This document shows positions 4,749-64,000 of a stretch of 64,000 nucleotides of DNA, one piece after another. Position numbers and translations under genes: made by a program. Positions within the stretch are counted from its first letter, which is position 1; every line of letters begins with the position of its first letter. The notes under the pieces are model-generated. The model did not search any database. It had not been told where the DNA came from and saw only the letters and a list, made by a program, of their open reading frames with translations. This DNA comes from Myxococcota bacterium (GTDB taxonomy: Bacteria; Myxococcota; UBA727; JAHDBA01), in the NCBI GenBank assembly GCA_020630615.1, contig JAHDBA010000001.1:155881-219880 (forward strand), read 5' to 3'.

Positions 4749-4883
4749 ACTAACCTTTGGCGTGCTCCCACTATTCTTGCGATCTTCAAGCAAAAAAAAT
4801 GCACAATGAATTGCGCATGAAAGTCGCGTGTCACGACATTCAGGTCGTTGACACCACTAAGCTGACTTGGTCTACTACGCGCA

Positions 4884-5909: not shown

Positions 5910-6027
5910 AGTGTCGAAGATGAAGGATCGAAATTTTAAATCACGCTAAAGTTGGCATTTGTTTGGCATTCAAAAGAGGTCCGTGCCGAGATTGAGACCG
6001 AATACAATTTTTGAGAGGTTAACGCGA

Positions 6028-7203: not shown

Positions 7204-7253
7204 TATTCCCATATTCGAGACTTCTTCAACGCTGAAAAAATCGAGGCAAAGTG

Positions 7254-10583: not shown

Positions 10584-11582
10584 TTAGTGTTGATTTGAGA
10601 GGGCCATAAAGGAGGGGCCTTCATCGCTATAGCGTGTGGTGAGACCATAGTTCCTCGGATCGTTAACAATTATGATGGAGTTTTTCTCTCCCTTGCTTTC
10701 AATTTTAAACTTCGCCTTCGCCTTTTGCTTGCGATCTAAAAATTTAAACACGAACTCTTCGCTCCCATCCCTTTTGGTGTGGGTTGTGTATTCAAAGGTT
10801 TCAGTGGTCCAGTCGCTGAAGTCGCCTTCATGGTACCATCCTCGGTTGACGTCGCTCGGGTTGTTTCTTGCAAACTGATACATTCGAAAGCGCTGTCGAT
10901 TCTTGTCTTGAAAATCAAACCATACACGAGCGAGCTTCGAGCTGCTCTGTAGCATCGGATGGGCCTCAAGCATGCTTTCACGGAAAGGAATATTTCGAGC
11001 TAGATCCAAAGTACGAACAACGTCGTTCAAATCATTGGATGCTTCCATAGGCCGAAGCTTGAAGGTTGACTTCTCACCAAGATTGAAAGGGTCGTTTTGG
11101 AGCACAAACTTCGCATGACGTATTCGACCGCTCTTGGTAACCTTCACTTCACTTCTATACTTATGCTTTGTATTGTTCATCACGAACTTCACTTCGTTGT
11201 TCTTGAGACTCCATGTGAAAGATCGAGTGGCATTCAAGGTCTTTGTCCCATATCGATAAAGGCCAATGTATTGACCTTTGGAATTGGGCTCGGGATGAAA
11301 GTAGTAGTATCGCTCTGATTTCGAGCTTGGTTTCTCGGAACGCGAGAGGTCCCAAAGACCAAAGAGTTGTCCCTCTTTCGCGTTGGGTACCATATCTGCA
11401 GATACAAAAGCATCGCCTCGAGCGATGTTTGAGCTTCGGGGATCCAATCCATCCTGCATACTCGAGCCGTCTTGAGCTTCATCACACGTTTTCGATGATG
11501 GCGAAGCCCAGTAGTAGCTCCCGGCAAATGCAAAAAGAATAATCGAGTTCGCGAAGGGTAGAAGTAAAGTTTTGAGCTGCAT
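10584..11582 (-). CDS. Hypothetical secreted protein
   Basis: GAGGA RBS before ATG at 11582; signal-peptide-like MQLKTLLLPFANSIILFAFAG; no recognisable domain. Confidence 0.5.
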   Translation of the reverse strand: MQLKTLLLPFANSIILFAFAGSYYWASPSSKTCDEAQDGSSMQDGLDPRSSNIARGDAFVSADMVPNAKEGQLFGLWDLSRSEKPSSKSERYYYFHPEPNSKGQYIGLYRYGTKTLNATRSFTWSLKNNEVKFVMNNTKHKYRSEVKVTKSGRIRHAKFVLQNDPFNLGEKSTFKLRPMEASNDLNDVVRTLDLARNIPFRESMLEAHPMLQSSSKLARVWFDFQDKNRQRFRMYQFARNNPSDVNRGWYHEGDFSDWTTETFEYTTHTKRDGSEEFVFKFLDRKQKAKAKFKIESKGEKNSIIIVNDPRNYGLTTRYSDEGPSFMALSNQH

Positions 11583-11806
11583 GATCGTCCTCGGAATATC
11601 CCCTAAATTCCGATCTTTCAGCCATTCTGTCAATTTTGTCGTTGGTTTAGAGCGTGAACACTTTTCAGGATTAGAAGATCGCTCTTTATCGCTTTTCATG
11701 AACGAAAATGGGACAGCGTCTCCCAAAAGAAAATTATTAGTAACACTCTTCACCACACCCTCGTTGTCTCTGTATCCACATCAAACGTGAACTAAGGAGT
11801 CCAACG

Positions 11807-12147: not shown

Positions 12148-13062
12148 ATGAATTTTGAAATTGGTTTTGGCCTAAGAAGACCGCACTATGCAGAAATACT
12201 ACGAGAAGGCGTACGCGTTCCGGTGGTTGAGTGCATTAGTGAGAACCTTTTTCAGATGCGTGGTCGTCCTTTTCGTGTTGTGGAGAGAGCCCGTCAAAAT
12301 GCAGAACTTTTACTTCATGGGGTTTCGCTTTCGATTGGCGATATGGACGAAATCCCTACAGACACGTTAAAAGAGCTTCGAGAGCTTGATTCGATCCTTG
12401 AGGCAAAAGTGATTAGCGATCACTTGTGTTTTGGCCGCGCGCATGGTCGACGTGGATTTGACCTTTGGCCGCTCCCGATGAACGAAGCGATGATTTCTCA
12501 TTTGGTGGCTCGCATTGGTCGAGTGCAAGATGTCCTCGGTCGTCGCATTGCTCTAGAAAACATTTCTGCATACTGCCGCTTTGAAGCAGATGAAATGTCT
12601 GAAGTTGAATTCATCAATCAGATCTGTCTGCGTGCAGATTGCCTTCTTTTACTCGATCTCAATAATTTGCTCGTGAATGAGCGAAACTTTAACCAACCTG
12701 CAACCGAGTTTTTACAAGAGCTTGACTTAAGTCGCATTGCGCAAGTTCATGTCGGGGGTCATAGTGACCTGGGCACCCATGCATTTGATGATCATGCATC
12801 GCCACCGAGTGATGCGTGTATCCAACTCTTCGTGCACCTCACACAACTTCTGCAAGCCACAGAACTCAATCTCAAAAACACAGATGTATTCACAATCCTA
12901 GAGTGGGACGGAAATATTCCAAAGATTGAACGATTCTATCAAGAGACCCAGCGTCTCAAAAAAAGTATAGCGGGCATGCGTGCTACAAAGAGCATGAACA
13001 CAAAAATCGATGACTCTCTTTTCAATCTTGAGAAAGCCGAGCGAGAGGGTGTTCGCATATGA
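12148..13062 (+). CDS. MNIO enzyme (DUF692/UPF0276, MbnB/BufB-like)
   Basis: N-terminal EIGFGLRRPHY… start characteristic of DUF692; TIM-barrel-like length (~300 aa); 3' end overlaps the next gene (ATGA). Confidence 0.8.
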   Translation: MNFEIGFGLRRPHYAEILREGVRVPVVECISENLFQMRGRPFRVVERARQNAELLLHGVSLSIGDMDEIPTDTLKELRELDSILEAKVISDHLCFGRAHGRRGFDLWPLPMNEAMISHLVARIGRVQDVLGRRIALENISAYCRFEADEMSEVEFINQICLRADCLLLLDLNNLLVNERNFNQPATEFLQELDLSRIAQVHVGGHSDLGTHAFDDHASPPSDACIQLFVHLTQLLQATELNLKNTDVFTILEWDGNIPKIERFYQETQRLKKSIAGMRATKSMNTKIDDSLFNLEKAEREGVRI

Positions 13063-13949
13063 TCAAAAGCTTTGAAAACAAGCGAGCATTCGACAGTTCA
13101 CAATACATACACTCGGAAGTGAATCCGGATGCACTGGCTCACCTTCAGTCTGAGTTGGGTGCCTTTGCAGAATCAGCGCTCGGTATTGGCGTATTGCAAA
13201 CGCGCGGTCTGAGAGCTGCAGGTACATTGAGTGTTCAAGAGGCTGCATCTGTGTATGAAACAAGTTCGCGCCTAATTCGAGACCGTACAATTCAGACACT
13301 TTTTCCCGTGACGATGGCTTATCTTCATGATGTGAATGCCGACCACTCTGGCATCTTGAAAGAATACCGAGAGTGGCAACACGATAGGGGCGGCGCCCTA
13401 GAAACCTATGGTGAGGGTTTTCCTCGAGCATTGCAAACTTACAATGCCATTGCGGCTAAAATAGCGTTCTATGAATGGGAACGCTTTGCATCGCATCGAA
13501 TTGCGATTCCAAGGCCAGAAGGCAATCAAGCACTTGTGCTACCTGTCGAAAGATTCGCAAGCGAGGGTATGAAGCTTGGTTTGGACGCACCGAATGTACG
13601 TGTTTTCGAGACACAAGAAGCGTTAGCAGAAATGATGAAGTCCAGCACTCAAGCTGGGTCTCCTGCGCTTGATGAATCCGAAGAAATCTGCGGCATTTTG
13701 ATGAACCCCAGTGTTGCCGGTGTTCGGGAGCATATCGTATCACGCGTTCTTGTCGCTCTCGTTCGAGAACTGCAACGCTCGCGTGCGAATCATGATGTTA
13801 CGCCAGGAGGCCTTGTCGTAAAACTTCAACGCGATGGCTTTTCAGGTGTAGAAGTTGCCAGTGCACTTCGTGACGCCATTCACCATAAGCTTCTCATCAG
13901 TGAGGGGCGAACGATTGCATTTTCAAACTCAAAGAAAACCAAAGGATGA
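13059..13949 (+). CDS. Putative MNIO partner protein (DUF2063/BufC/MbnC-like)
   Basis: Translationally coupled to the DUF692 gene, as in bufferin/methanobactin operons; size fits; motif assignment (…FENKRAF…NPDA) is weak. Confidence 0.5.
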   Translation: MIKSFENKRAFDSSQYIHSEVNPDALAHLQSELGAFAESALGIGVLQTRGLRAAGTLSVQEAASVYETSSRLIRDRTIQTLFPVTMAYLHDVNADHSGILKEYREWQHDRGGALETYGEGFPRALQTYNAIAAKIAFYEWERFASHRIAIPRPEGNQALVLPVERFASEGMKLGLDAPNVRVFETQEALAEMMKSSTQAGSPALDESEEICGILMNPSVAGVREHIVSRVLVALVRELQRSRANHDVTPGGLVVKLQRDGFSGVEVASALRDAIHHKLLISEGRTIAFSNSKKTKG

Positions 13950-15696: not shown

Positions 15697-15756
15697 ACTA
15701 TTCATGCTTCGGTTACGAATCAAAGATATGTAAGTTTGACTTGTGATTGAAGTTGG

Positions 15757-15778
15757 GGTTCCGTTGGGAACCTTTTTT
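15757..15778 (+). terminator. Rho-independent terminator after secG-tRNA-Leu
   Basis: GGTTCC-GTTG-GGAACC hairpin followed by TTTTTT. Confidence 0.75.
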
Positions 15779-15892
15779 ATTTCTATCGATCAAATTGTTG
15801 TATCGCGGATAGAGTCAAGAATAAGAGTGAGGTTTGATATTCAAGAACGACGCCGACGAATTGCGCAAGCCTTCCTAGAGATTGCGCAATCC

Positions 15893-17248
15893 ATGGAAAT
15901 CACGGATTGGGCAAGACAGGCAATTGTGCCAGTCGTTAGTTGTATGTGTGCTCAAGATTTTTCCTACTCTCGGCGTTTGCAGATTTTTAGAGATCGCTTC
16001 CGAGTGCCCATTGTGTCGCAATCGGGCTCTCTCGGGTCCTCCTTTGTTGGTATTGCAAGATCGCAAAACGACTTAAAAGCGTTCGAACGTATCAAAAAGG
16101 CCTGTCCAAGTGCTAATGCATCATGGGCCACATTCGAAGTCAAAAGTGCACCATCCTTTTTTACAAAAATACGCTCCGCAATTGAATCTGAAGTAGGATA
16201 TCGCTTATCTTCTGAAACGGATTCTAAGACAAGGCAAATTCGTTCTTTCACACATGAGTTGGCTCGCCACGCTATTTGGCTCTCGGGCTCGGAACAAATC
16301 AAAACGCAAAGGCTGGTTTGTCGGATCATGCGATCGACTTTGAGGCGCGGTGAAATACTCAGCCAAGCTTTGGCAAAGTTGAGTGCGCCTAAAGTTGTAT
16401 TCATTCGTAATCCAGTTGAACCCTATGGTTTTGCTAGTGCGCAATGGGCAGGAGCTAATGGTGTTAAATGTATTTGGTTGCAGCATGGTCTTTTGTACGA
16501 GAAGGATGCCTTATGGCCACTTATGGAGGCCGACGAATACTGGGTTTGGGGCAATCATTGGAAAAACGTAGTGGAAGCGTGGGGGAAAGCATCAGCTCGA
16601 GTCTTCGTAACAGGGGCGCTTTATGGTGATAGTATTGGGGGTACAAAGAATACGCACATCAATGGCAATCTCGAGAACGAAGGGCATGATTTGCTTGTCG
16701 CTCTCTCTGGGCCAGGGCATTCGATTTCCCAAAAAACGTACATTGCAATCTTAACGTTTCTAAAGCGAGCCTTTGAGAGGAATCCATCGAGAAAATTTAG
16801 AGTCCGACTGCACCCCAAAGAGCTTGCCTCGAGTTACTCTGAATTTCTATCGCTTCCCAACGTATCGATTGACTTTAGTGGGAAGCGTACTCTTGAGCAG
16901 GACATTGATGCGTCCAAAGCTGTTTTGATTGTGAGTTCCACCCTTGGTCTGGAAGCTTTGAGTCGTCTAAAGCCCCTCATACGTATCGATATTCCAGAGG
17001 CGCGGGGGTTCTTCCCCCTGGAAAACTCGTCCGAAGAATGGATCCAGCATATCACGATGAATGCAACTGAGTTTGACCACGCTTTAACGCATATGAGTAC
17101 GCTCAATCTTGATGTTTCGACGATGCGAGAGTCGATTGAAAGAGCACTTTGTGATTTAAGGGGTATTCCTCAAGCTGAAGTCATTCGAGAGCGCCTGCAA
17201 TCTCCAAATTGCATGAAGACTACTGACATTGCCTACAAAGGGGCTTAA
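15893..17248 (+). CDS. Hypothetical protein, possibly TagB/TagF-like glycerophosphotransferase or capsule biosynthesis protein
   Basis: The ORF-track start (15743) lies upstream of the terminator, so the start was moved to ATG 15893 (GTG 15827 also possible); C-terminal half has a …RVRLHPKE… HP motif reminiscent of CDP-glycerol glycerophosphotransferases; first gene of a glycan cluster. Confidence 0.4.
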   Translation: MEITDWARQAIVPVVSCMCAQDFSYSRRLQIFRDRFRVPIVSQSGSLGSSFVGIARSQNDLKAFERIKKACPSANASWATFEVKSAPSFFTKIRSAIESEVGYRLSSETDSKTRQIRSFTHELARHAIWLSGSEQIKTQRLVCRIMRSTLRRGEILSQALAKLSAPKVVFIRNPVEPYGFASAQWAGANGVKCIWLQHGLLYEKDALWPLMEADEYWVWGNHWKNVVEAWGKASARVFVTGALYGDSIGGTKNTHINGNLENEGHDLLVALSGPGHSISQKTYIAILTFLKRAFERNPSRKFRVRLHPKELASSYSEFLSLPNVSIDFSGKRTLEQDIDASKAVLIVSSTLGLEALSRLKPLIRIDIPEARGFFPLENSSEEWIQHITMNATEFDHALTHMSTLNLDVSTMRESIERALCDLRGIPQAEVIRERLQSPNCMKTTDIAYKGA

Positions 17249-21805: not shown

Positions 21806-21898
21806 GTCTTTTGAATCAAAAGAGTTTGAGGGTGCGTTTGAATGCGTCTCACAAACCTGAGCGCTTCGTAAATTCGAGAGACAAGGATATGTGGTTTG

Positions 21899-23581
21899 AT
21901 GCCTTTGTGTGAAAGTTCAGCTGAGAATACGATCTCTCAACAGCCACTCCGAAATTTGTTTTCAGTACCCAAAGCGCTTCTCTTGCTTATGGTGGTGTTA
22001 CTCGTTTTGATCACACTGGGGCAAATCGGTGCGTTCCCGAACTATGACGACTCACTCATCGCATTGGCTTCTCGTGAGGCAGGCTCGAGAGCGCTTTTTG
22101 ATATGCACTTCGATCAGCCGGTCAACGGTTGGCTTTGGTGGAAGTTGGATGCACTTGGAGTGCTTTGGTCTTTTGGAGTAGGCTCCAATATCATCTGGTG
22201 GGCATTGATGGCGCTTCTTGCACGTGCTTTCGTATTGATTGCAAGTCAAGGTGCCGACACATCGTTTTGGCGAGACGTTGGATATAGTGCCCCACTGGTG
22301 GTGTTAACGCCGATATTCTTAGAAACAAACTCTGTGATTATAACCACAGGCTTTCCCATTATCGGTGTTTCGACTCTGATTCTCAGCACCCTCTTAATCT
22401 TTGAACTCACTCACTCACAATCCACTGCACGCTATGTGCTCGCACTAATTCTATGTGCAGCAATGGTTTTTGGTCTGCAATTGTTCTATTTTTATGGTGT
22501 GCCTTCTGGGGCGGTTGTTTGCGCCTGGGTTCTCGGTCGGACGCTCTTGGCTCATTTCTCGTCAAAGCGCCGGAAACTTTCAATAGGACGTTCTTTTGCG
22601 TTCATCCTGACCATACTCGTGGCAACGGGGGCGGGGTATGCCTGCTTTAAGTTGCTGGGTGACTTTTCTTGGCGAGCGTCGGTATCGGCAGATTCTGTCG
22701 GCGCAAGCCTTTTTGGGCGTCTTGTTCGTTTACCACTACAGGCTCTTAGTGTTTTGCTCTCGGTTGGTATTGGTGCTTTTGCTGAAGAGCTTGGCGCGAT
22801 TTCCGTGCGTACCAAGCTCGATCTTATCGCAACCGTGCTTGGTGCCTTGAGTGGGTTCTATCTTTGGCGTTGTTTCCAAATGCGCGGTGTCGCTGCGCCA
22901 AGAGAATCTGGCGCCGAAAGCAATGGACCTCGATCACAGAATGTATTGAATGTTTTCATATTGCTTGCTTTCTGTATTTTCGCGGTATTTGTTCCTGTTC
23001 GAATGATGGGGCGACCTTTTGTTTATGAGGGGTTCATGTCACGTATGGTGGCGCCAGCGCTTCCCTTCATGGCGATTTTCTTGAGCATATCATTGCGTTT
23101 GATCTTGTGTGGCTTGAACTCAACGCGCTTTCTGGCGATCGTGGGTGGGCTCTTGATCAGCATTTGTGCGCGAGATGTTCTTCAAGACCGGCATGTGCGT
23201 GACGTCCACCGTCGCTGGGGAAATGAACTTCAAAGGCTTATGGAGTCTCACGATGATCAAGTCGTTGCTCTCTTTCCGAAAAGTTCGCAGATTCGACGAA
23301 CACAGTTTGGCGATGACCTTTTGACTGCACGATTAACAATGGACTGGCCGCCAGCGCTTCGAAAGCGTTTTTGGGCAAGTGTCAGTCCTGGTGAAATGGG
23401 GCCGAACGGAACTTCGCAAATACGGATACAGGACTTCCCAAGCATGCAGCGTAGGCAACCCGATACGATCTGGATCGTCCATCTCAATAAAGAAGTTTTA
23501 CACGTTAGCGAGACCCATCAACTTGAGAGCTTGAGCAAGATTGAATCCAGCCAGTTTGATGTTCGTGCTCGAAGCCACTAG
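21899..23581 (+). CDS. Large polytopic membrane protein, possible GT-C-type glycosyltransferase/polymerase
   Basis: ~11 TM N-terminal domain plus ~150-aa soluble C-terminus, located in the glycan cluster; no specific motif recognised. Confidence 0.4.
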   Translation: MPLCESSAENTISQQPLRNLFSVPKALLLLMVVLLVLITLGQIGAFPNYDDSLIALASREAGSRALFDMHFDQPVNGWLWWKLDALGVLWSFGVGSNIIWWALMALLARAFVLIASQGADTSFWRDVGYSAPLVVLTPIFLETNSVIITTGFPIIGVSTLILSTLLIFELTHSQSTARYVLALILCAAMVFGLQLFYFYGVPSGAVVCAWVLGRTLLAHFSSKRRKLSIGRSFAFILTILVATGAGYACFKLLGDFSWRASVSADSVGASLFGRLVRLPLQALSVLLSVGIGAFAEELGAISVRTKLDLIATVLGALSGFYLWRCFQMRGVAAPRESGAESNGPRSQNVLNVFILLAFCIFAVFVPVRMMGRPFVYEGFMSRMVAPALPFMAIFLSISLRLILCGLNSTRFLAIVGGLLISICARDVLQDRHVRDVHRRWGNELQRLMESHDDQVVALFPKSSQIRRTQFGDDLLTARLTMDWPPALRKRFWASVSPGEMGPNGTSQIRIQDFPSMQRRQPDTIWIVHLNKEVLHVSETHQLESLSKIESSQFDVRARSH

Positions 23582-48378: not shown

Positions 48379-49694
48379 AGGTAAGACTTGAAGTGGCCCC
48401 ACAAGAAACGTTGTGGGTACCTTTTAATCAAAAACTACTGAACGCAGCGAAATTTTTGTCGGTATTGACGATCGTGATTGGTGGTCTTGTGCTTGTTTTG
48501 CCATGGCGACAGAACATTTCTGTTACGGGGCAGGTCACTGCGCTAGACCCTAATATGCGGCCACAGGATATCGAAGCGCCGCTTAAAGGTGTCATTAAAA
48601 CCTGGCACGTTCGGGAAGGTGATTATGTTGAAAAGGGTGCATTGCTCGTGACTCTGGTCGACAACGATCCCTTGTACCAAGATCGTATCCAACAGCAGTT
48701 GAATGCCTCAGCGCAAAAACTAAAGCTCTACGAAGAGAAAGAAAATCAGGAGGGTGAGCGCCTCAACGCACTTATCGCGGAGAAAGGGGCAATCTTGGAT
48801 TCCCTGATTCATGAAGTCGAGATGATTCGGGAACAGGTGAGTAAGTCTGAGGCTGAACTCATGGGTGTTCGTTCAAAAGCGAAAACCGCAGAGTTAAATT
48901 ACAAGCGAACTCAAGAGTTATTTCAGAAAGGGCTTCGTTCGCAACGCGATCAAGAACTTGCACAAATGAAAGCAGAAACGACGAGCGCTGCACTTCAGCA
49001 ATATCAAGCGGGGTTGTCAGAGAAACGGTCGAAGTTGAAGTCGACGCAGGCTAAGGTTCAAGAAAAACGGGCTGCCTTGAAAGCCGCACAAGCAAAGCTT
49101 AATGTCGCGATTACAGATATCAAGACTTCTCAACAAGATGCACAGAAAGAAGTTCAAGAAAAAGAGGTGGTGTTTGCTCGACAAAAAAACCAGGAAATTC
49201 GTGCCGCACGCTCGGGTATGGTGACGCAAATTTATAAGGCTGGAGCAAACGTTCAAGTCAAGCAGGGCGATTCACTACTCACAATGGTTCCCCAAAGTCA
49301 GGACCGCATTGTTGAACTCTTTGTTACGGGTAGAGATATTGTTCTGGTTCGACTGGGAACACACGTCCGACTCCAATTTGAAGGATGGCCTGCGATCCAG
49401 TTTGCGGGTTGGCCGTCAATCGCCATTGGCTCTTTCGGGGGTAAAGTTGTTTCAATACAAGCTCAGCATCTGAGCTCAAAACAAGGATATCGAGTTCTTG
49501 TCGAACCGGATGGCGATGTTGAGTGGCCGGATTCAAGATTTCTTTATCAGGGGCTTAAAGCGAAGGGGTGGCTCATTCTTAATCGAGTGAGTCTCGGCTT
49601 TGAAATATGGCGACAGTTGAATGGTTTCCCGCCTACCGGTCAACTTTTTGATAAGCCCGAAAAGGCGCCAAAGTTTAAAGGTAAAAAGTTATGA
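48375..49694 (+). CDS. HlyD-family membrane-fusion (periplasmic adaptor) protein
   Basis: N-terminal TM, long coiled-coil, C-terminal beta domain; ATGA overlap with the upstream gene. Confidence 0.8.
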   Translation: MKVRLEVAPQETLWVPFNQKLLNAAKFLSVLTIVIGGLVLVLPWRQNISVTGQVTALDPNMRPQDIEAPLKGVIKTWHVREGDYVEKGALLVTLVDNDPLYQDRIQQQLNASAQKLKLYEEKENQEGERLNALIAEKGAILDSLIHEVEMIREQVSKSEAELMGVRSKAKTAELNYKRTQELFQKGLRSQRDQELAQMKAETTSAALQQYQAGLSEKRSKLKSTQAKVQEKRAALKAAQAKLNVAITDIKTSQQDAQKEVQEKEVVFARQKNQEIRAARSGMVTQIYKAGANVQVKQGDSLLTMVPQSQDRIVELFVTGRDIVLVRLGTHVRLQFEGWPAIQFAGWPSIAIGSFGGKVVSIQAQHLSSKQGYRVLVEPDGDVEWPDSRFLYQGLKAKGWLILNRVSLGFEIWRQLNGFPPTGQLFDKPEKAPKFKGKKL

Positions 49695-51167
49695 TGCCTC
49701 GAAACATTCAAAAAATGCTGTCACTTCAGCGAACTTACGTCTTGGTTGGCCTTGTCTTGTGTCGATTCGGGCACGCAGCTGAAGTTGAGAATGTCATTTC
49801 CAATGTTTCGGGTGAAAAAGAGTTGTTACAAGATTTTTTGAGCAATGTGCGCGTACAGCATGAGCAGTTTCGCGTTTTTGAGCAGCGTGTGCGTGCCGCC
49901 GAAGCAAATCTGCAAGGGAAGCTCGGCGTGTTTGATCCAAAAATTTACGGCGGTATTCGAGGGCGCACGGGCAAGAACGAGTGGTTGCAGGGGGAAGTAG
50001 GAGTCAAAACTTTACTCCCTTGGTACGGGGTGGAGGCAAGCGTTGGTTATGAAAATTCTGACGGCATCTTCGAGGATTACGAAGGGGCGTACCGGACAAC
50101 CGTTGGTGGAGACTGGGTCGCAAAGCTTCGAGTCCCGGTGTTGAGGGGAGGTTGGTATGACGAAGCGCGCTGGGATCGTGACGAAAGTGTTCTTAAGCTT
50201 GAACTTGTCAATCAAGAGGTGCGAGGACTGGAGCTGGAGTTTCAGTATGAAGCTCTTGAGGCTTTGTGGCGCGCACGAATTGCCGAACGTAAACGTCGTC
50301 TTTACGAAGAAATGGTGACACGAGCTCGAGAAAGAGTTTCGATGATCACGAGTGAAGTCAATGCGGGGAATCGCGCGGAAATAGACCTTGTTGAGGCGCA
50401 CTCGATGCTTGACGACCGAAATGCGCATTTGAAGCGTGCAGAGGCGAAGCTTTCATCTGAAGAAGAGAAATTGTCATTTTTTGCAATGTTTCCGAAGGAA
50501 GGTTCGAACGCACTGGTTGAACAGCATTCAGAGACTCTCGAAGAACATTCCGAACGCTCCCAATGAAATGTGCGAAGACTCCAAATGGATCGAGCGTCAT
50601 CCCAAAATTCTCATGTTGGATGTCAAACTTGAATTGAATGAGCTTCTGAATCGAATGGCAACCAATGAACTTATGCCGAGACTTGACCTCAATGCAAAGT
50701 TGGAGCTTGACACCTTGTCTTTGAATGAAGGGAGTTCGAATAATTATTTCATCGGATTGGATGGTGAATCGTCAATTTTATTGAGGAAGGGACGGGGTAT
50801 ATCAAATATGGCCAAAGCAAATCAAAGGGCGTTGCAAGCTAAACGTGGGGTTCAGGGGCGTGAGTTGCGACAGAAGTGTCGAGCGGCATATCAAGTTCTC
50901 TCTGGCTATGAAGATGCAACCGGCTTTTTAAGTTCGCGAGTGAGTGCGATGACACGGCTGACGGAAGCAGCGCAAAGTGAATTTGCCGTCGGAGCAGGCG
51001 ATCTTATCGACGTCAACGTTCGAGAGTCAAAAGAGATCAAGGCACGAATCGAGTATATTGAAAATCTGGGAGCCGCTCATATCAATGCGGTTCGTTTATT
51101 TGCGATGATGCGTTTGGCTCCCAAGAGTTATCTTGATGCACTCTTTGCTAGCGAATTATCAAACTGA
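49691..51167 (+). pseudogene. TolC-like outer-membrane factor split across two reading frames (apparent frameshift near 50436-50566)
   Basis: First OEP repeat is in frame 2 (49691-50566), second OEP repeat in frame 3 (50436-51167); combined length ~490 aa equals a normal TolC. Confidence 0.55.
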
Positions 51168-51361: not shown

Positions 51362-52723
51362 CTACATTGCTACTGTTTCTGTTTCAGGGCTCGCAAGTTC
51401 TTCTGAAGAAGGTTTGAGTAGAGCAAGGGCGAAAGAGAGTACACCTAGCCGCCCCATAAACATTAGAACTGATATCATGAGCAGTCCAAAATCGTCTAAG
51501 GTTGAAGTTGCACCTAATGAAAGCCCAACGGTGCTTAGCGCGGATACGGCTTCAAACAAAATAGAGAATCCAGAGAGCTTCACATCTTGTGATACGAATA
51601 GACAGAAAATGGCGCCTAAAAGAATTGCTCCATACGAAATGAACGATGATAACGCTAAAAATTGGTTCTTTTTGGGTATACGTACACTTAGAAATGTGAC
51701 GTGTGAGCGACTTTTAGTTACCGATTGGAGGATGGCCCACAACGCAGTGACTGATGTCGTCTTAATACCACCGCCCGTCCCAGCAGGGGACGCACCGATT
51801 GCCATCACGACAAGGATGATAAGGAGGGAGGCGCGTGACATTGTATTGAGGTCAATCGAGTTAAGGCCGACTGTCGTATGTGCAGAAAGAATTTGGAAGA
51901 ATGCGTCGAGTGTGCCGGTACCACGGGGATGCAACCAGCTCCAGTCCGCAAAGAAAGATAAAAGGGTCGCTCCCAGGCAAATCAGAGACGATGTACACAC
52001 AATTATCTAGGAGGTTTGTGTCATACGTGGTTGATGACGAATTAATCGGAGCCAACCGTCGAGAAGAACAATGAAACCGAGTGAGCCTAGAAGGGAAATA
52101 ATTGCGCTCGTATATAGAATGAGTGGAGATGAAGAAAAGTCGCCTAGTGAGTTTTCGAAGAGACTAAAACCAGCCGTGCAAAAAGTAGAGATGCTATGAA
52201 AGAGCGCCATCCAAAGAGGATCCTCTACACCGGCGTTCTGAAAACCCAGATAGAGTATCAAGGCACCACAAGCCTCAATAAGGAGTGTGAAAATGACAAC
52301 GCTGTAAATAAAAGTAAAAGTGGGATATTCATCTGGAAGGTTAAAGTCGAGCTTTAATAACCTGAGCGATAACGTGTCCATTCGACGGCGACAACTGAGG
52401 ATGATGAAGCCACTGATTGCCATATATCCGATGCCACCAATCTGAATAAAGAAGAGTGAAAAAAAGTGTCCCAAAGTGGTGAAATCTTCTGCAAAGTTGG
52501 TTGGGGCAAGTCCGGTGGTACTGACGATAGAAATTGCGTAAAATAGTATTTGAATCGAAGTGAGTTCTTCGTAGCGACTAAAGGGTAGGTAGAGAAGTAC
52601 AAAACATATGAAGCAGAGCAGCAAATATCCGATAATCAGCAAACGGATCGCAGTGCGAGCCGCATTACCTTTAATCGTGAGACGATTTAGAATGAGAGAC
52701 CACAACTCTTTCAGGGAAATCAC
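51362..52723 (-). pseudogene. ktrB: TrkH/KtrB-family K+ transporter membrane subunit interrupted by an in-frame TAG
   Basis: N-terminal half (52007-52723) and C-terminal half (51362-52000, GTG-initiated in the ORF track) share one frame, separated by TAG at 52007-52009; GGGIKT, CTAGF, LSTVGLS selectivity-filter-like motifs are spread over both halves. Confidence 0.55.
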
Positions 52724-55899: not shown

Positions 55900-55915
55900 T
55901 GGCACGTTGATTGCA
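55900..55915 (+). promoter_or_regulatory. Sigma-54 (-24/-12) promoter TGGCACG-N4-TTGCA
   Basis: ttGGcacgttgatTGCa with exact consensus spacing, 24 nt after the activator stop and ~28 nt before the mscS start. Confidence 0.6.
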
Positions 55916-55942
55916 AAACCTTGGGTAAAGGAGATGCACTCT

Positions 55943-56929
55943 ATGCTTGAAGATTTAACGACACACGACTTATCACTAACTGACATCGACAAGATCTTAT
56001 CAACCAACCTTTTTACGATTGGAGATGAGACATTTACTATCGGGACGCTCATTGTTTTGAGTGCTCTAATGTTAATAGGGCATTTCGTGAGTATTTTTGT
56101 AGCCCGGGGTACGAAGAAACTGCTTGAACAGACGGCTTTTCCTCGAGCAAAATGTATTGTTGTATCCAAGGTGGTTCATTTTACCACTTGGTTTTTTGCT
56201 TTGACGGTATCGTTGAGTGTTGTTGGTGTAGAAATTTCCGCGCTCTTTGCGGCCGGCGCAGCATTTGCTGTAGTGCTTGGTTTCGCGTTGCAACATTTAG
56301 CCCAAAATTTTGTGAGTGGCGTTATCTTATTATTGGAGGGCCGAATCCGGCGAGGTGATATTATCGAATACGATTCGCGCATTGTACAGGTGCAGACCAT
56401 CGGACTTCGGTCCACACTTGCGCGTACCTTTGACGAAGATGAGCTTATCATCCCGAACAAAGAGTTGGCCGACAAAGCCGTTCACAACAGGTCGCTATCA
56501 GATACTTTGGTTCGAGTACAGACCCAGGTGAGTGTGGCTTATGGCGTCGATCCAGATAACGTTTCTAGTGTACTAAAGAGCGCAGTTGAAAAACATGAGT
56601 TTAGTTTGAAGTCTCGCGACCCTCTCGTGAATTTAATCGAGTTTGCAGACTCCGGACTACTCTATGAGGTGTCGATGTGGACGAAGCGTCCTTCGAAACG
56701 CTATCGGGACCGAGGTTTGCTAAATACACTGATTTATAAAGCGTTACGGGATGCTCAGATTGAGATCCCCTATCCACACCTTCAGCTTAATATCGCCAAC
56801 GTAGATAGGCTTGAGAAAAATGCGTTAAATCCAAGTGAAAATCAACATTCAAAGGGCATTTCACAACGAGATTATGACAGTCCCTGTTCGTCGCCCTTTT
56901 CAGTGAACAGGACTGAGGCGTCCGCATAG
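55943..56929 (+). CDS. mscS: Small-conductance mechanosensitive channel (MscS family)
   Basis: MscS TM3/beta-domain signature …FAVVLGFALQHLAQNFVSGVILLLEGRIRRGDIIEYD…; AGGAG RBS 9 nt before ATG 55943. Confidence 0.75.
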   Translation: MLEDLTTHDLSLTDIDKILSTNLFTIGDETFTIGTLIVLSALMLIGHFVSIFVARGTKKLLEQTAFPRAKCIVVSKVVHFTTWFFALTVSLSVVGVEISALFAAGAAFAVVLGFALQHLAQNFVSGVILLLEGRIRRGDIIEYDSRIVQVQTIGLRSTLARTFDEDELIIPNKELADKAVHNRSLSDTLVRVQTQVSVAYGVDPDNVSSVLKSAVEKHEFSLKSRDPLVNLIEFADSGLLYEVSMWTKRPSKRYRDRGLLNTLIYKALRDAQIEIPYPHLQLNIANVDRLEKNALNPSENQHSKGISQRDYDSPCSSPFSVNRTEASA

Positions 56930-57327: not shown

Positions 57328-57635
57328 TTGAAACCCTAAGAAAGTCGCAATTCGCTAAGTGAGGTAAACTTTGGCGTGGAGAGATTAGGAGTGTAACAAA
57401 GCCTGGTGATATCCAACATGAAAAGCCCGCGTGTAGCGAGCTTCACACCCTCACGGGGTACCAACCAAATGTGAGTTACCTTGAGAGGCCCTCCTCCTCA
57501 ACAAAGATAGACACAGAATAGGCCATCAATGCGCTTCGTCTATCGGTAGAGTGGGGGATGGCATTTGGCTTAAAGCCCCAGTTCAAGTGAAGACTGGCCG
57601 AAGGCGGAAGATTTCGCTATACTGACAAGACGCAT

Positions 57636-58006
57636 GGGGGCGATTTTGGATTCGACGGGGGTAGGAAGAGATAAGTTGCATGTCCCGCCTGAATGGCGAG
57701 CGGGTTAATAAATGCCTTTCAACGTAATAACTGCAAACGATAATGTAGAACTTGCAATGGCTGCCTAAACCGTAGTTGCATTGCCGTCGCTCCGAGGTTG
57801 TCTGTGCTGAGGAACTAGCGGCGCCAACCCAGCAGGCTGGATGATGTGTTGGTTCTCTTTGGCCCATCATTGAGATTAAGGAGAGAGCCTCTAGATGAAA
57901 GCCTGTTTGTGGGCGCGCATTTAGAAAATTAAATCACAAAATAAACATGTAGATGCTTATGTTGGACGACTTTCGGACGCGGGTTCGACTCCCGCCGCCT
58001 CCACCA
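57636..58006 (+). ncRNA. ssrA: tmRNA (transfer-messenger RNA, SsrA), one-piece, CCA encoded
   Basis: 5' GGGGGCGATTTTGGATTCGACGGGG…; 3' …GGACGCGGGTTCGACTCCCGCCGCCTCCACCA; acceptor stem has G3-U pair; internal tag ORF gca aac gat aat gta gaa ctt gca atg gct gcc taa (ANDNVELAMAA). Confidence 0.9.
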
Positions 58007-58174
58007 CCTACTGCACTGAGGCTAAAATCTGCTTGGTTATCTTTTTCACCTCAGACTAGCGGCATTGTAAAAGTAAATTTTAAGTTTGGTGAGGGTTGGT
58101 GTGTCACCAATCAACCAATCGCCGTCTAGTGGCGGTATTGGTTGTACGACATTCGTCGGCGCCAAATTTCAGAC

Positions 58175-60946
58175 ATGGCTGATATCACGAATATGAACAA
58201 ACTCAACATATCCCGTGGCTTCGAGTTCTATCCATCCAAGTTGGAATGGGACGGTAATGGGCCTCGTCAGACCGATGCCTGGCTCGAAGCGGCTGCGCGC
58301 ACTTGCGAAGCCAATGGAATTAAGATCACGCTTGGACAAGGTCTCGACAGTTTAGTTTTGACACCAGATCGGATTCGATTCGATCTCGCGACCTATGATC
58401 CAAACACAAACAGTCAAAACGAATTGCACAAAATTTTGAGGAATGTCGGCGGAGATTCTTTTGATGGTTTATTCCAGATTCTTGATGACATTTTGAAAGA
58501 TGCAGGTCACCACAACGGGAAGCATTTTGACCTGCGCTATGATATGCCTCTGGCGAAGCTTTTGAGACTTGGTGATGGAAATATTGATACTTACGGACCC
58601 AGCACGACAGCGACTACAAATCAATTGGTCGAATACGGTATCGTACAGGGCTTGAATGTTGACTCTCGGAGAAGAAGGGCGAACGGCGGAAGGGTACCAC
58701 GGAACTTTTCCGAGAGTGAGGCGGTATCACATATTGGTGGTTTAAACTCACGCCAGCGCGCGTCTCTTATGAATTTAGAAAGAGGCGGCAGGCGGGTTGT
58801 CGACAGAATGCGTAATATCACTGAATATGGATTTTTCCATCTCGACCATACGAATCCTGAAGAGATAGATTGGTCTCGTCGCGCCCATGAGACGAGAATG
58901 CAATCTCCTTATTACACACTCGCAGTTGAAGCGGGCCGCGTCGAAATTGACGAGAATGATGGACGTTGGGAGCCTGATTATGGAACAGATCTTAACGAAG
59001 ACGTTTATTACCGTGCCTTTCTACAAGGCCAGCCCAATGTTGATCTGCTAAAGAAGAATAATATTAGTTTTAGACATCGAATACGAAGAGACAATGCAGA
59101 CCAAATACGACGCGTGATGTTTCAGATGAAGCATCAACAAGGTGTCACGAAAGATGGTGACAAACTCGCGCAAAAAATAGATCAGCGAATCGACGGTTGG
59201 AGTGTTGAAAGTGGAGATGAGGAGGGAATTTTTGGTGACCGTGCTCATCATCAACTACAACGTATGGTTCAATCCGGTGAGCTTGCCAATGGTGACATGA
59301 TGGTTACGACCGAGAGTCTGCTGAATACACTCGTTACATCGGGTGCACTTGATATCAGCTCTACTGATGTTTCGATGTTAGAAATGGAGCCTGCCGCACT
59401 CGTTCAATCCAAACGAAGTCGTTTTCATCAACGAGAGCTTAACCTTAATCACACCACTGCGTTACGTGACTATGCGACGAAACGACTTTCAAGTTTTATT
59501 GAGCGACTTGGCAATGATTCTACAATACCAACCGATATTGCTGACAAACTTATTCTAAGCTGTGAATCAGCGTTAGATCTAAGCCATTTGGCAAAGGAAT
59601 TTCTATCAACACTCGACAACCAGCATGAATATGAGGAAGCAAAGCGACTGGGGCAGAAACTTTTTGTGTATGAGGAAGATCCTACGCCGGCGCCTGACTT
59701 ATCACAGAGCCCGCTCGTAGAACAACAGGATCGTTCAACAGCACGTCTTAAGTTAAAGGCAGCCGACTTCTACGCCATGGAAATGAGTGTATTACACGAC
59801 AACATACGTTCGCTTCGCGATGAGTTGAGCGGTGCAAATGAGCATGACCAATACCTTGGTGATGCATATATTGATTACTGTCGAGAAGGTATTGCATCCA
59901 CGAAAAACGCGTTGGCCATACTTGAGAAGCTTGAGTCGACCGGCGATCCCAATGCAAGAGTAGATGCAATCACTTCGATGTTAGAGGATTTTGCACTTTA
60001 TCTCGAGGCTGAAGAGAGCGATGCGAGCCTTGTTGGGCTGAGTAGAGATCGTCTGCTGAGAAGTTTCCAGGCAATTCGACGGGGGGTCCAGCACGCCGAT
60101 CTAGCCACATTGGCGCGACAAGTTGAGACCAGTGGAATGATGATACAAAGTCAAGCATTTGAGTGCCTTCGGGCGAGTTACGGTATTCCAAAAATCCCTC
60201 GACCCTCTTTTGGTGCGACGGCGGGGGATGCCAATATTATAACATTTGACCAAGTGCGCTATTTTGAACCTGAACAATGGGCAGCTATGAGCGAAAGCGA
60301 ACGTTCTTGGGAAGAGGGTGTTTTCTCCGTCGAGCCTTATCACGCAGACGTTGTTATTGAATGTCAGGTTGAATGGGATGTCATCCAAAGTTATCGTAGG
60401 GAAGAGCACCACCAAGATCTTCTTTTCGCATGCTTATATCAGGCTGCTGCTAAAGTTTTGTCTGAGCAGCACGAGAAAGGTTTGCCGTTGAACATTTCAT
60501 CTTCAGCACTAAGTACTTTAATGGAACATAATGTAGATTCACTTCATCATAAACTGAAAAACCAGTGGAATCCCGAGAGTGCAAGTACATGGGATGATGA
60601 GAATGAAAAGGCTCTACAGATCCTTGGAAATCCAGAAATCAAAGAAACCTTTGATCAATGGCTCATTGAAAATCTACCGCATCGTGTCACAGATCTAGAA
60701 AGCACTTCTATCGACCCAAAGATTGCCAACTTTCGTTCAGAGCATGCCAGGAACTTAGAGGCATTTGTAGCCGACGATAAGATGGTAGACTTTATGCTGA
60801 AGGAAGTCATAGAATCGACACGGTTGATGACACGCATGGCAGAGCGAAAGATTGAACGTGAACTTGAGCGTGCTGGTTTCGACCAAGCTGAGTGGTCACC
60901 TAGTGTTTCGAGTAAAGGTGAGACCGCAATCAATGAGCTTGAATAA
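58175..60946 (+). CDS. Large (~920 aa) acidic hypothetical protein, no signal peptide/TM, no recognised domain
   Basis: Long ORF immediately downstream of ssrA and inside the region bounded by the tmRNA 3' duplicate. Confidence 0.6.
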   Translation: MADITNMNKLNISRGFEFYPSKLEWDGNGPRQTDAWLEAAARTCEANGIKITLGQGLDSLVLTPDRIRFDLATYDPNTNSQNELHKILRNVGGDSFDGLFQILDDILKDAGHHNGKHFDLRYDMPLAKLLRLGDGNIDTYGPSTTATTNQLVEYGIVQGLNVDSRRRRANGGRVPRNFSESEAVSHIGGLNSRQRASLMNLERGGRRVVDRMRNITEYGFFHLDHTNPEEIDWSRRAHETRMQSPYYTLAVEAGRVEIDENDGRWEPDYGTDLNEDVYYRAFLQGQPNVDLLKKNNISFRHRIRRDNADQIRRVMFQMKHQQGVTKDGDKLAQKIDQRIDGWSVESGDEEGIFGDRAHHQLQRMVQSGELANGDMMVTTESLLNTLVTSGALDISSTDVSMLEMEPAALVQSKRSRFHQRELNLNHTTALRDYATKRLSSFIERLGNDSTIPTDIADKLILSCESALDLSHLAKEFLSTLDNQHEYEEAKRLGQKLFVYEEDPTPAPDLSQSPLVEQQDRSTARLKLKAADFYAMEMSVLHDNIRSLRDELSGANEHDQYLGDAYIDYCREGIASTKNALAILEKLESTGDPNARVDAITSMLEDFALYLEAEESDASLVGLSRDRLLRSFQAIRRGVQHADLATLARQVETSGMMIQSQAFECLRASYGIPKIPRPSFGATAGDANIITFDQVRYFEPEQWAAMSESERSWEEGVFSVEPYHADVVIECQVEWDVIQSYRREEHHQDLLFACLYQAAAKVLSEQHEKGLPLNISSSALSTLMEHNVDSLHHKLKNQWNPESASTWDDENEKALQILGNPEIKETFDQWLIENLPHRVTDLESTSIDPKIANFRSEHARNLEAFVADDKMVDFMLKEVIESTRLMTRMAERKIERELERAGFDQAEWSPSVSSKGETAINELE

Positions 60947-61433
60947 ACTATCAAGTCTACAAACGAAATGGCTTGGTGGAGTTGAGACAACGCTCACAGA
61001 TTTGACGCGCATCATAACAAATATTTGATGAAACTATTTTTCACGAGAAACCATATGCGGACACTTCGCTTTTAGAGCATCGGTCGCAGTCAAAATATGT
61101 TTTTCGTCGTAAACATAGATTCTATGCCTCGCCTAGGCCTTTGAACTGATGAAGCAGTTTACAGTTGTATAGTCGGTCAATTATTTTTGGTGGCTTATTG
61201 AGCCGACGAAGATACCAAGCGACTGAAAGGCAAGCTGTTTGGCTAATGCACTGTCATCAACCTCAAATAAGATATGCAGAAAAAACTTTTGCTACGGATA
61301 TTCGTATAATGGTCGCATCTGGCCCAGATGTGTTTTTCCATGCTGCTTTTGCTGTCGCCAAGTGAGCAAACACCCCTTTAAAGTGAATGTCTCGAGTATC
61401 GATAGTCTGCATGTTGGCAGGTTCTAAAAAATA

Positions 61434-61697
61434 TCATTGGGGAAGGTGGTATTGCGCTAAAAGGCTTTTAATATCTTCTTGCAGATGCAAGAGATCTGCC
61501 TTCTTGAGACCGTTGTAAATACCGCGAATATGGCCTGCCGGATCAATAAGTACGAAATTTTCGGTGTGGAGAAAATCGTTTGGGTCTTTCTTAAGACCGA
61601 GGTCTTCCTCGATAAAGTATGACTGGCGCCCGAGGGCGTAAATATCTTCACCTGGTCCCCTCTTACGTGTGTTTAAACTATTATATCGGTGCGTTTC
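61434..61697 (-). pseudogene. SCO1/SenC-family (thioredoxin-like copper chaperone) C-terminal remnant without start codon
   Basis: Open frame …EDLGLKKDPNDFLHTENFVLIDPAGHIRGIYNGLKKADLLHLQEDIKSLLAQYHLPQ* matches the conserved SCO1 C-terminus; no ATG/GTG/TTG; the N-terminal part is absent. Confidence 0.5.
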
Positions 61698-61778
61698 TTA
61701 ATGACGATTTCTCAGAGGAAGGTAGAGTCCAAGTAGAAAGTGTGGGGTAGTTCACCCCAAATCAAGCAGGACGTGTTC

Positions 61779-62612
61779 ATGAATGAAATTGTTAACAAAG
61801 CACTTTTTACTATTTCCGGGACTGCCGTTACGATCTCCACAGTGATTGCGGTATTCTGTATCATAATGACGACTCTGCTGGTGCGTCATATCGTTTCAAG
61901 AGCGATAGAGAGAACTTTTAGCCACATTGGCACGATGCGAGATGGTGCATTGCGATCTGTGCAAAAACTGATCGGCTATGGGATTTTTCTGCTTGGTCTA
62001 TTGGTAGCCCTTAGTACACTAGGTGTTGATATAAGTGCTCTTTTTGCAGCCGGTGCATTTTTTGCGGTGGCGATCGGTTTTGCGATGCAAAATATCACGC
62101 AGAATTTTGTGAGTGGAGTTATTCTTTTAGTTGAGCGAGCGATTACACCTGGAGATGTCATCGAGTTGGATGGTCAGGTGTTGAGGGTTCAATCCATGGG
62201 GATTCGCTCGACGATTGCTAGAACATTTGATGAAGATGAAGTCATTATCCCCAACTCAAACATTGTTCAGGTTGCGGTTAAGAATCGAACACTCTCAGAT
62301 ACTATTGCACGGGTGAAAACATCGGTAAGTGTCGGATATGATTCCGATTTAAACCATGTTCGTGACACCTTGATGACATGTGCAAAGAGCTTCCCTTTTC
62401 GACGCCAGGACCGTGACCCGGTGATTGTATTGAATGAGTTAGGAGATAGCGCACTAGTATTCGATATCGCGATATGGACCTCGATGCCCGGTGAACGCTA
62501 CATCCACCGTGGTGAACTCAATGTGCAAATCATCGACTCTCTTCGCTCCGCCGGGATCGAAATACCGTTCCCGCAAAGAGTTATTCACAATGTGAACACG
62601 ATGTCCGAGTAA
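61779..62612 (+). CDS. MscS-family mechanosensitive channel, diverged paralog of 55943-56929
   Basis: …FAVAIGFAMQNITQNFVSGVILLVERAITPGDVIELDG…; roughly half the residues identical to the first MscS. Confidence 0.7.
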   Translation: MNEIVNKALFTISGTAVTISTVIAVFCIIMTTLLVRHIVSRAIERTFSHIGTMRDGALRSVQKLIGYGIFLLGLLVALSTLGVDISALFAAGAFFAVAIGFAMQNITQNFVSGVILLVERAITPGDVIELDGQVLRVQSMGIRSTIARTFDEDEVIIPNSNIVQVAVKNRTLSDTIARVKTSVSVGYDSDLNHVRDTLMTCAKSFPFRRQDRDPVIVLNELGDSALVFDIAIWTSMPGERYIHRGELNVQIIDSLRSAGIEIPFPQRVIHNVNTMSE

Positions 62613-62858
62613 TATGCTCCATCACCCGCTGCTAGGTTGGCTACAGCTACATTTTTGTTGAAGCCGAGTGATGTTTAATTTGGGAGATGTTACGAACGTC
62701 CAATCTTTGAGAAGCAAACCAGATCGAAGGCCGTGTAGAATCGATTGAAGACGTTGGTGCTGATACATAAGTGGTCTGAAGCTCTTTTCACATGTGAGGC
62801 CGTCTCTGAAAGGGTATCGTCAGAAACATAGTGCTCACCAGTAGAATGTTCATCCTCA

Positions 62859-63042
62859 TCCAACGTGAAAAGCCCGCGTGTAGCGAGCTTCACACCCTCA
62901 CGGGGTACCAACCAAATGTGAGTCATCTTAAGAGGCCCCTGTTTGTGGGCGCGCATTTAGAAAATTAAATCACAAAATAAACATGTAGATGCTTATGTTG
63001 GACGACTTTCGGACGCGGGTTCGACTCCCGCCGCCTCCACCA
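62859..63042 (+). repeat. Direct repeat: ~80-bp copy of the segment found 150 bp upstream of ssrA, fused to a copy of the last ~105 nt of tmRNA (ends …CCACCA)
   Basis: 62859-62937 matches 57412-57490; 62938-63042 matches 57902-58006 almost base for base; the tmRNA 5' two-thirds (tag ORF, PK1-3) is absent. Confidence 0.85.
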
Positions 63043-63199: not shown

Positions 63200-64000
63200 T
63201 TAAACCAGCCGGCCAATATGGGCAACGCGTGCACCGGCATAACCGACCGGGTTCACAGACTTCCCGATAACAATACCATCTTCAGGTGCCTGGATACGCT
63301 GAACAACATCACCAAAAATATTTCGTACGATGCCGATTTCATCACCTTGTTGGACGATTTCACGAAGCTTCGGAATAACGCTTAATATCCCGCCATGGTT
63401 TGTGAAGACCCAAAATGAGCTTCCGCATACATTTGGCTTCTTCTTTTCTTCAAAAGGGCGACCTTTGATCATCTTCATCTCATACATCACCGCTTTGATC
63501 CCTTGCACAGACTTCTTAATGAACTCCGGCTGAAAAAGCTGCGGATCGCCAATTTCTAAAGTCACTGATGGAATTCCTATGTTTGCGGCTTCGCCACGCA
63601 GTGAACCATCACGTGCTTCTTTGTGAACGATGATTTGAGGTCGAAGTCGTCGAGCCATCATTGCACTGCGACATTCCTCCATATCCGCACGAGCATAGAG
63701 TGAATTGATTCTACCTCGACTTGCAGTGTGTAGATCGATAAGCGCATCAAACTTTGCAAGAAGACGATCGTGTATTCGTGCGGCATAGGTTTGCGACACA
63801 TTTCCATACTCATCGCCTGGCATGATGGTATTAAGATCTGTGCTGTCCGGAAAGCGTCTTTTTTGTAGAATGAAGCCAGGCACATTCGTCACAAGTGCAG
63901 CAATAATGGTCCCGCTTAAACGAGTAGGTTCAAGATCTGAGGATAGGCGATGAATCACAGGAATGCCATTGATCTCATTGCCATGTAAAGCTGCTGTGAT
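63200..64000 (-). CDS. Succinylglutamate desuccinylase/aspartoacylase (AstE/AspA) family protein; 5' end beyond window
   Basis: Frame stays open to the window end (…ITAALHGNEINGIPV…); family-typical zinc-ligand region. Confidence 0.65.
   Translation of the reverse strand: MTAALHGNEINGIPVIHRLSSDLEPTRLSGTIIAALVTNVPGFILQKRRFPDSTDLNTIMPGDEYGNVSQTYAARIHDRLLAKFDALIDLHTASRGRINSLYARADMEECRSAMMARRLRPQIIVHKEARDGSLRGEAANIGIPSVTLEIGDPQLFQPEFIKKSVQGIKAVMYEMKMIKGRPFEEKKKPNVCGSSFWVFTNHGGILSVIPKLREIVQQGDEIGIVRNIFGDVVQRIQAPEDGIVIGKSVNPVGYAGARVAHIGRLV

Follow-up and report, generated by a model that had tools for sequence, protein, structure and literature searches.

A displaced tmRNA 3′ end fused to upstream ssrA DNA in a Myxococcota contig: a possible scar of a Campbell-type insertion

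The DNA analysed here (the window) is a stretch of 64,000 nucleotides of contig JAHDBA010000001.1 from the Myxococcota bacterium assembly GCA_020630615.1 (positions 155,881 to 219,880, forward strand). It contains one intact gene for transfer-messenger RNA (tmRNA), ssrA, which is located at 57636-58006 on the plus strand and codes for the tag ANDNVELAMAA according to ARAGORN; the Rfam model RF00023 matches this gene over its full length with 178 bits. The final 105 nt of ssrA (57902-58006) are found again at 62938-63042 with 100% identity (repeat search and BLAST, E 7.5e-51). A second block, 57411-57491 upstream of the gene, recurs at 62858-62938 with 77 of 81 nucleotides identical (95%; repeat search and BLAST, E 2e-32), so that in the distant copy upstream DNA is fused to the displaced 3′ fragment. 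The initial annotation of this DNA had reported the intact gene and the repeat of its 3′ end, and both were borne out, the gene by ARAGORN and the full-length Rfam match and the repeat with 105 of 105 nt. The upstream flank of about 80 bp that it described as fused to the copy is real as well, but it is one base longer at each end and lies 144 bp instead of 150 bp upstream of ssrA. The elements of the locus are:

57411-57491 (+): 81-bp segment, copy 1 (repeat search, BLAST)
57492-57901 (+): 410 bp unique to copy 1, missing between the blocks of copy 2
57636-58006 (+): intact ssrA, tag ANDNVELAMAA (ARAGORN, Rfam RF00023)
57902-58006 (+): 105-nt identity block, copy 1, attL equivalent; starts in the hairpin GCC-UGUUUGUG-GGC and ends with CCA (repeat search, Rfam alignment)
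58007-62857 (no strand): bracketed segment of 4,851 bp, the islet (composition, recombinase search)
62858-62938 (+): 81-bp segment, copy 2, with four mismatches (repeat search, BLAST)
62938-63042 (+): 105-nt tmRNA 3′ fragment, copy 2, attR equivalent, without the 5′ acceptor strand and the tag region (repeat search, Rfam)

The 81-bp segment of copy 1 ends 144 bp upstream of ssrA and is separated from the 105-nt block by 410 bp (57492-57901). In copy 2 the two blocks abut, with an overlap of a single nucleotide (the C at 62938). Copy 2 therefore equals a 596-bp cassette, 57411-58006 (position −225 of ssrA to CCA), minus 57492-57901. The 410 bp that are absent comprise the presumed ssrA promoter and leader (57492-57635) and nucleotides 1-266 of the tmRNA. 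Altogether, the stretch following the ssrA 3′ end, copy 2 included, is 5,036 bp long (58007-63042). A third copy of the 105-nt or the 81-bp block was not found in the 64-kb window with BLAST and local alignments. Degenerate remnants of the cassette, as a tandem array might have left, were not found either: the non-coding stretches aligned locally to the cassette scored no higher than shuffled sequences.

Rfam calls a second tmRNA at 62756-63042, with 51.4 bits against a gathering score of 47. This call is an end-to-end alignment that is forced onto unrelated 5′ sequence. High posterior probability is confined to the 105-nt block, so we took this block to account for the score. The tmRNA fragment in copy 2 is non-functional, because the acceptor stem cannot form. 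Automated annotation would call a second tmRNA here, and 62756-63042 should be annotated as a fragment and not as a gene.

At each of the four outer edges, the similarity between the two copies breaks off abruptly: the 60 bp that precede both 81-bp copies and the 60 bp that follow both CCA ends align no better than shuffled sequence. At the right edge, identity stops in both copies exactly at ...CCTCCACCA, the mature tmRNA 3′ end. This exact stop, which is absent from the initial annotation, is the most telling detail of the locus: a process or selection that recognises the 3′ end of the gene would be expected to give an edge at CCA, which a random segmental duplication would seldom produce. 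On its left, the 105-nt block has its edge at a small hairpin, GCC-UGUUUGUG-GGC, an inverted repeat with an 8-nt loop, located in the last pseudoknot region according to the Rfam alignment. Work by Williams from 2002 and 2003 reportedly places integrase crossovers at stem-loop sites in tRNA and tmRNA genes. The hairpin resembles such crossover sites, which is suggestive only, and it is not a canonical sublocation. The crossover point itself is not readable from repeats that are 100% identical.

The four mismatches in the 81-bp segment are at its positions 8, 67, 69 and 73. These four differences show that copy 2 is a separate physical sequence and not entirely recent, and they also argue against a simple assembly artefact. 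Compared with the 105-nt block, four changes in 81 positions versus none in 105 give p = 0.034 in Fisher's test. Since a functional ssrA copy cannot drift, the comparison was recounted with only one lineage of the 105 nt free to change, which gives 0.14. The asymmetry supports no conclusion.

The 81-bp segment itself has no Rfam match, and its folding is unremarkable when compared with shuffled sequences (z −1.1 to −1.8). Pairing between the 81-bp segment and the tmRNA 3′ strand through a 10-bp complementarity was considered and rejected, as 77% of shuffles pair at least as well. An 18-codon open reading frame (ORF), MKSPRVASFTPSRGTNQM, is located inside the repeat core on the plus strand (57418-57474 and 62865-62921). 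The single mismatch within it turns ATG into GTG; the remaining three lie past the stop codon, and a Shine-Dalgarno-like GGTGA precedes this ORF in copy 1 only. It is probably a product of chance.

The islet between the two copies (58007-62857) does not stand out by composition. It has no shift in G+C content and a codon usage that is typical of the window, and its tetranucleotide distance ranks 11 of 60 window segments. The ORFs and the non-coding frames of the islet gave no recombinase, integrase or transposase domain (Pfam and other searches), and no recombinase or transposase domain turned up among the ORFs of at least 150 aa in the window, which covers 958 bp of DNA downstream of copy 2 and ends at 64000. 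The earlier statement that the segment contains no integrase thus holds for the islet and for all window ORFs of at least 150 aa. The islet and its flanks contain the following genes and candidates:

55907-56929 (+): MscS-family channel gene 1, left flank (Pfam MS_channel domains)
58175-60946 (+): large protein with a predicted split triphosphate-tunnel (CYTH/TTM) fold and long helical insertions, 923 aa from ATG 58175
61437-61697 (−): open stretch of 87 codons without a start codon, previously described as a SCO1/SenC remnant (six-frame translation)
61779-62612 (+): MscS-family channel gene 2, 277 aa when read from the ATG and 290 aa when read from the GTG at 61740 (Pfam)
63200-63958 (−): succinylglutamate desuccinylase/aspartoacylase-family (DoeB-like) gene, right flank, convergent with ssrA (Pfam AstE_AspA_cat)

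The large islet protein, 923 aa when read from ATG 58175, is identical to a database protein; the length of 934 aa given initially counts from a TTG. It matches no Pfam or NCBIfam model. It had been called an orphan, which it is not: an exhaustive HMMER search identified homologues in 65 cluster representatives, 41 of them below 1e-10. The family ranges from about 530 to 1700 aa, and one member has a peptidoglycan-binding domain. Its alignment shows invariant alternating acidic and basic patterns (ExE, RxRxR, KxxxKxDxR and RxRxH). E180 and E182 are close to invariant; the ExExK lysine is not conserved, and the invariant residues are R300, R302, R304, K330, K334, D336, R338, R414, R416 and H418. 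The AlphaFold2 model (pLDDT 78.9, pTM 0.74) has eight long strands with large helical insertions between them, which is the eight-stranded antiparallel beta-tunnel of the CYTH/TTM fold. One homologue matches the Pfam CYTH family (PF01928) below threshold, with 16.9 bits versus 23.2. From the homologue alignment and the AlphaFold2 model, we therefore assign the protein as a predicted large member of an uncharacterised CYTH/TTM-fold family. This family of large split CYTH/TTM-fold proteins of about 600-950 aa, defined by the cargo protein, may merit a study of its own.

The two MscS proteins share 43% identity and belong to the same subfamily. MscS1 is 100% identical to a database protein that starts at 55943 and is 328 aa long. 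Outgroup homologues have 41-48% identity to MscS2 and 36-41% to MscS1, and the distance between MscS1 and MscS2 is about the distance of either to the outgroup homologues. The pair is made up of old paralogues, far older than the repeats and with no bearing on the recent event. A second, diverged MscS gene is indeed present, as described in the initial annotation; its proposed mirroring of the first gene cannot date from the same event, because 43% identity stands against 95-100% for the repeats. An ancestral mscS-ssrA synteny was also considered and rejected, as loci of distant MscS homologues are without tmRNA. The SCO1/SenC remnant could not be confirmed: even with thresholds set lax, the 87-codon stretch at 61437-61697 matches nothing in Pfam, in NCBIfam or among PDB sequences.

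On the right flank, the DoeB-like gene matches NCBIfam TIGR02994 only at profile positions 68-322 of 325. An in-frame stop codon lies just upstream, and the window ends at 64000. Judged from these features, the gene may be N-terminally truncated. A TrkH-family gene on the minus strand (51362-52723) is broken into the ORFs 52007-52723 and 51362-52000, whose frames differ, and about 70 Pfam profile positions (approximately 242-311) are missing between them; the gene seems to be a true pseudogene that has lost an internal segment. A TolC/OEP-family outer-membrane gene on the plus strand (49691-51167) is split into the overlapping ORFs 49691-50566 and 50436-51167, with a run of six T at approximately 50477 in the overlap. 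This split is either a frameshift or a sequencing error.

Among other ssrA-specific islands are CP4-57 of E. coli and VPI of Vibrio cholerae. A review by Williams from 2003, "Traffic at the tmRNA gene", is said to cover ssrA islands such as these two. Fragments of tmRNA genes that result from island integration are routine (PMC4131195), and integrase-less derivatives that keep both attL and attR are recognised as cis-mobilizable elements (CIMEs; PMC3146451, PMC6323972). The ssrA-specific genomic islands of Dehalococcoides (McMurdie et al., 2011; PMC3146451) are similar to the present locus in that the inserted DNA lies downstream of the gene and between repeats. Their repeat is 20 bp, whereas it is 105 nt here. 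The Dehalococcoides islands, CP4-57 and VPI have an integrase module next to attL, which is not present here. In addition, known ssrA islands show compositional or synteny breaks and have an attR fragment to which no upstream ssrA DNA is joined; in our case the composition is native and the fragment is fused. Of the features of a genomic island, the locus has an intact target gene at one boundary and, at the other, a 3′ repeat that ends at the gene end; an integrase gene inside the island is missing. As in CIMEs, a segment without an integrase lies at a tRNA-type gene and is flanked by att-like direct repeats: genes for integration or transfer were not detected, and the 105-nt repeats are kept perfectly. 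CIMEs differ in that their att sites have to be usable by the integrase of a related element, and no such integrase or element is known here. At best, the islet fits the known category of an integrase-less, CIME-like island scar. As a 3′ fragment that is called as a second tmRNA, copy 2 is like the tmRNA gene fragments and pseudogenes described earlier (PMC4131195); here these two categories are combined, with a 3′ fragment at an island-like boundary that is joined to a piece of the upstream flank. The locus is thus a known kind of feature, an ssrA 3′-end repeat scar, with one unusual structural detail, the fusion of upstream DNA to the displaced 3′ fragment.

Any parsimonious history has to explain two sequences that abut the same CCA end, upstream DNA that is fused to the displaced fragment, and the missing integrase. 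The reading we favour, with a confidence that is about even, is that a Campbell-type insertion at the 3′ end of ssrA left the locus as its scar, that the element carried captured ssrA-locus DNA, and that the redundant copy later lost 410 bp. The capture would be analogous to the formation of lambda dgal and lambda bio, in which aberrant excision takes host DNA from one att side and loses the phage's own DNA on the other. An element would first have integrated site-specifically at the 3′ end of ssrA in a closely related donor, which would have generated the junction CCA|58007. Aberrant excision in the style of lambda dgal might then have carried off the host ssrA cassette back to 57411, and the element's own right end would have been lost, possibly with the integrase. 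The defective circle would have entered the present lineage by a single (Campbell-type) crossover in the shared homology of the ssrA locus. In this way the cassette would have been duplicated on both sides of the cargo, and the native DNA (63043 onward) would have stayed on the second CCA end. A 410-bp deletion would finally have taken out the redundant promoter and the 5′ part of the second ssrA; such a loss would be in character for the region, because the nearby TrkH gene shows decay by internal deletion. The end state would be an immobile, integrase-less islet with the CYTH/TTM-fold gene, an MscS gene and non-coding debris. The likeness to lambda dgal and lambda bio concerns the proposed capture route and the re-entry by homologous recombination, which duplicates a host segment, and is an analogy only: nothing in the islet is phage-like, and the extra 410-bp deletion has to be added. 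RecA-mediated recombination between the perfect 105-nt repeats could loop out the islet and leave ssrA intact.

We counted for the insertion the geometry of the repeats, the exact CCA edges, the four mismatches and the lack of a recombinase in the window. The published tmRNA fragments from island integration (PMC4131195), the recognised CIMEs (PMC3146451, PMC6323972), the phage records with the conserved tmRNA 3′ end and an IMG/VR contig with an integrase-like ORF beside its tmRNA also counted for it, as did the merely suggestive hairpin at the left edge of the 105-nt block. Several points weigh against it. The composition and codon usage of the islet are indistinguishable from those of the host, and no integrase, excisionase or transfer gene is present. 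The cargo looks chromosomal and not mobile: its MscS gene is a paralogue from the subfamily of the neighbouring gene, and its TTM protein is lineage-restricted. The 105-nt identity block is longer than the restoration of the gene needs, and neither an empty site nor a donor element was found in the collections searched. Finally, the history has four steps, none of which is directly observed. The initial annotation had proposed an old degraded islet or a duplication-deletion event. Both stay the leading explanations, although the details it added, an orphan protein, a SCO1 remnant and a mirrored MscS gene, did not hold. Its view that this is not a fresh insertion fits the fact that no integrase was found, the four mismatches in 81 bp and the native-like composition.

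A local duplication followed by a deletion would require no foreign DNA; it is the main rival, which we consider possible but less likely than not. The 4.85 kb would be native, and the 596-bp cassette (57411-58006) would have been copied about 5 kb away and would then have lost 410 bp to become a tmRNA pseudogene; either copy position could be the original. This history accounts for the 81-bp piece directly and more simply, as part of one unit, and more simply also for the native-like composition and codon usage. The lack of a recombinase, the chromosomal character of a cargo with both MscS proteins in the same subfamily, the deletional decay of TrkH nearby and the known tmRNA pseudogenes without one gene end (PMC4131195) are all consistent with it. 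However, the precise end of the duplicated unit at the mature CCA would have to be a coincidence, and no bacterial mechanism is known that makes a non-tandem direct copy of 596 bp at a distance of 5 kb. A tandem duplication as the starting point needs two further deletions, one of which would again start exactly at CCA. That copy 2 ends at the mature CCA and begins in the upstream leader region would also fit an RNA-templated copy of the ssrA transcript, a bacterial tmRNA retro-pseudogene of 186 bp; the 4.85 kb between the copies would then be native DNA, without any integrative element in its history. The joining of distant transcript parts with a 1-nt overlap would then resemble a template jump of a reverse transcriptase. 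We regard this as very improbable: the CCA is genome-encoded, the window contains no reverse transcriptase, there is no evidence for a transcription start near 57411, and nothing specifically supports such an origin.

The attL/attR-like geometry, with a repeat that ends at the 3′ end of the gene, could also have been left by an ordinary integrase-mediated ssrA island. The 81 bp of copy 2 would then be element DNA, for example an attP arm or a regulatory segment, the integrase would be deleted or act in trans, and the islet would be a CIME, a category that exists (PMC6323972); integrase-less ssrA islands have been discussed for Dehalococcoides (PMC3146451). The upstream 81-bp copy would in this case have arisen separately, for instance through a previous visit of an element or as a small repeat element. 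We think this unlikely, as it needs an independent and unexplained 81-bp copy 144 bp upstream of the same gene. The 64 kb contain two 81-bp copies and hence no dispersed repeat within the window, and the 27-nt and 23-nt cores of the 81 bp were not found in viral or metagenome collections. Repeats of 81 and 105 nt have a length at which short-read assemblers go wrong, and several split genes nearby could reflect sequence errors, so that a chimeric or mis-joined repeat might have produced copy 2. Copy 2 has four differences from copy 1, however, and a unique 81|105 junction that the collapse of a repeat cannot make; both copies lie in unique flanks, and the TrkH defect is a missing internal segment and no simple indel. 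An assembly artefact therefore has a very small probability. Smaller still is the chance we give to the 186-nt chimera being a functional RNA gene, for example for a small RNA derived from tmRNA or for half of a two-piece tmRNA. The perfectly kept 105 nt versus four changes in 81 bp (Fisher p = 0.034) would speak for such a function, but this asymmetry is not significant (0.14) with one 105-nt lineage free to change. The 5′ acceptor strand is absent, the folding z is −1.6, and the duplex of the 81 and 105 nt is matched by 77% of shuffles. Two hits of the permuted-tmRNA model RF04321, with 30.4 and 20.6 bits, stay below its gathering score of 47 and overlap the normal gene. The DNA upstream of copy 2 yielded no promoter-like call.

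An empty site would have the layout ssrA, followed directly by TTTCGCGCAGCGG... and the DoeB-like gene. Searches for relatives that might show it gave the following picture. MscS1 found nothing above 35% identity in the GTDB species genomes, and its best non-self match among 5.8 billion proteins was 41% identical. Exact look-ups of window proteins in a contig index yielded no match except a 1.5-kb Logan contig for a sigma-54 activator. Nothing was found in metagenomes scanned for the 81-bp core or for a degenerate tag pattern, nor in viral contigs scanned for the same core, for the 3′ piece of the tmRNA and for the 923-aa protein. The exact 27-nt and 23-nt cores of the 81 bp were absent from the viral and metagenome collections, and the 923-aa protein had no match in phage and plasmid collections (tblastn). 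These searches thus gave no close relative in any of the collections covered.

The conserved tmRNA 3′ end is common in phage records. One IMG/VR contig contains a tmRNA on the minus strand with the sister tag ANDNVELALAA (contig region 3757-5689). The same contig has a 544-aa ORF on the plus strand that matches the phage-integrase central domain and whose far end overlaps the tmRNA 3′ end. It is possibly an ssrA-integrated prophage in a GC-richer lineage, and it weakly suggests that ssrA is an attachment site in a lineage with an ANDNVELALAA-type tag. This tag is similar to ANDNVELAMAA of the present gene, and we take it to be of a Myxococcota type. As a comparator locus, the contig is too distant.

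Annotators should mark the 5-kb segment as a possible islet without an integrase, removable by recombination between the 105-nt repeats. If the capture by aberrant excision is true, the locus records how an island gained extended host homology and then persisted without its own integrase. The current understanding of tmRNA and of genomic islands is unchanged by this finding.

Elsewhere in the window, several sizeable ORFs are without a Pfam match (3831-4793, 4884-5909, 5959-7203, 7251-9020, 10584-11756, 15743-17248 and 21896-23581). Together with the tag type and the lack of close homologues of the flanking genes, such ORFs point to a poorly sampled lineage. At 12148-13949 on the plus strand, a gene for an MbnB/TglH/ChrH-type enzyme that modifies precursors of ribosomally synthesised and post-translationally modified peptides (RiPPs; E 3.7e-75) is followed by an overlapping ORF of 296 aa without a Pfam match. 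These two genes may be a RiPP biosynthesis pair.

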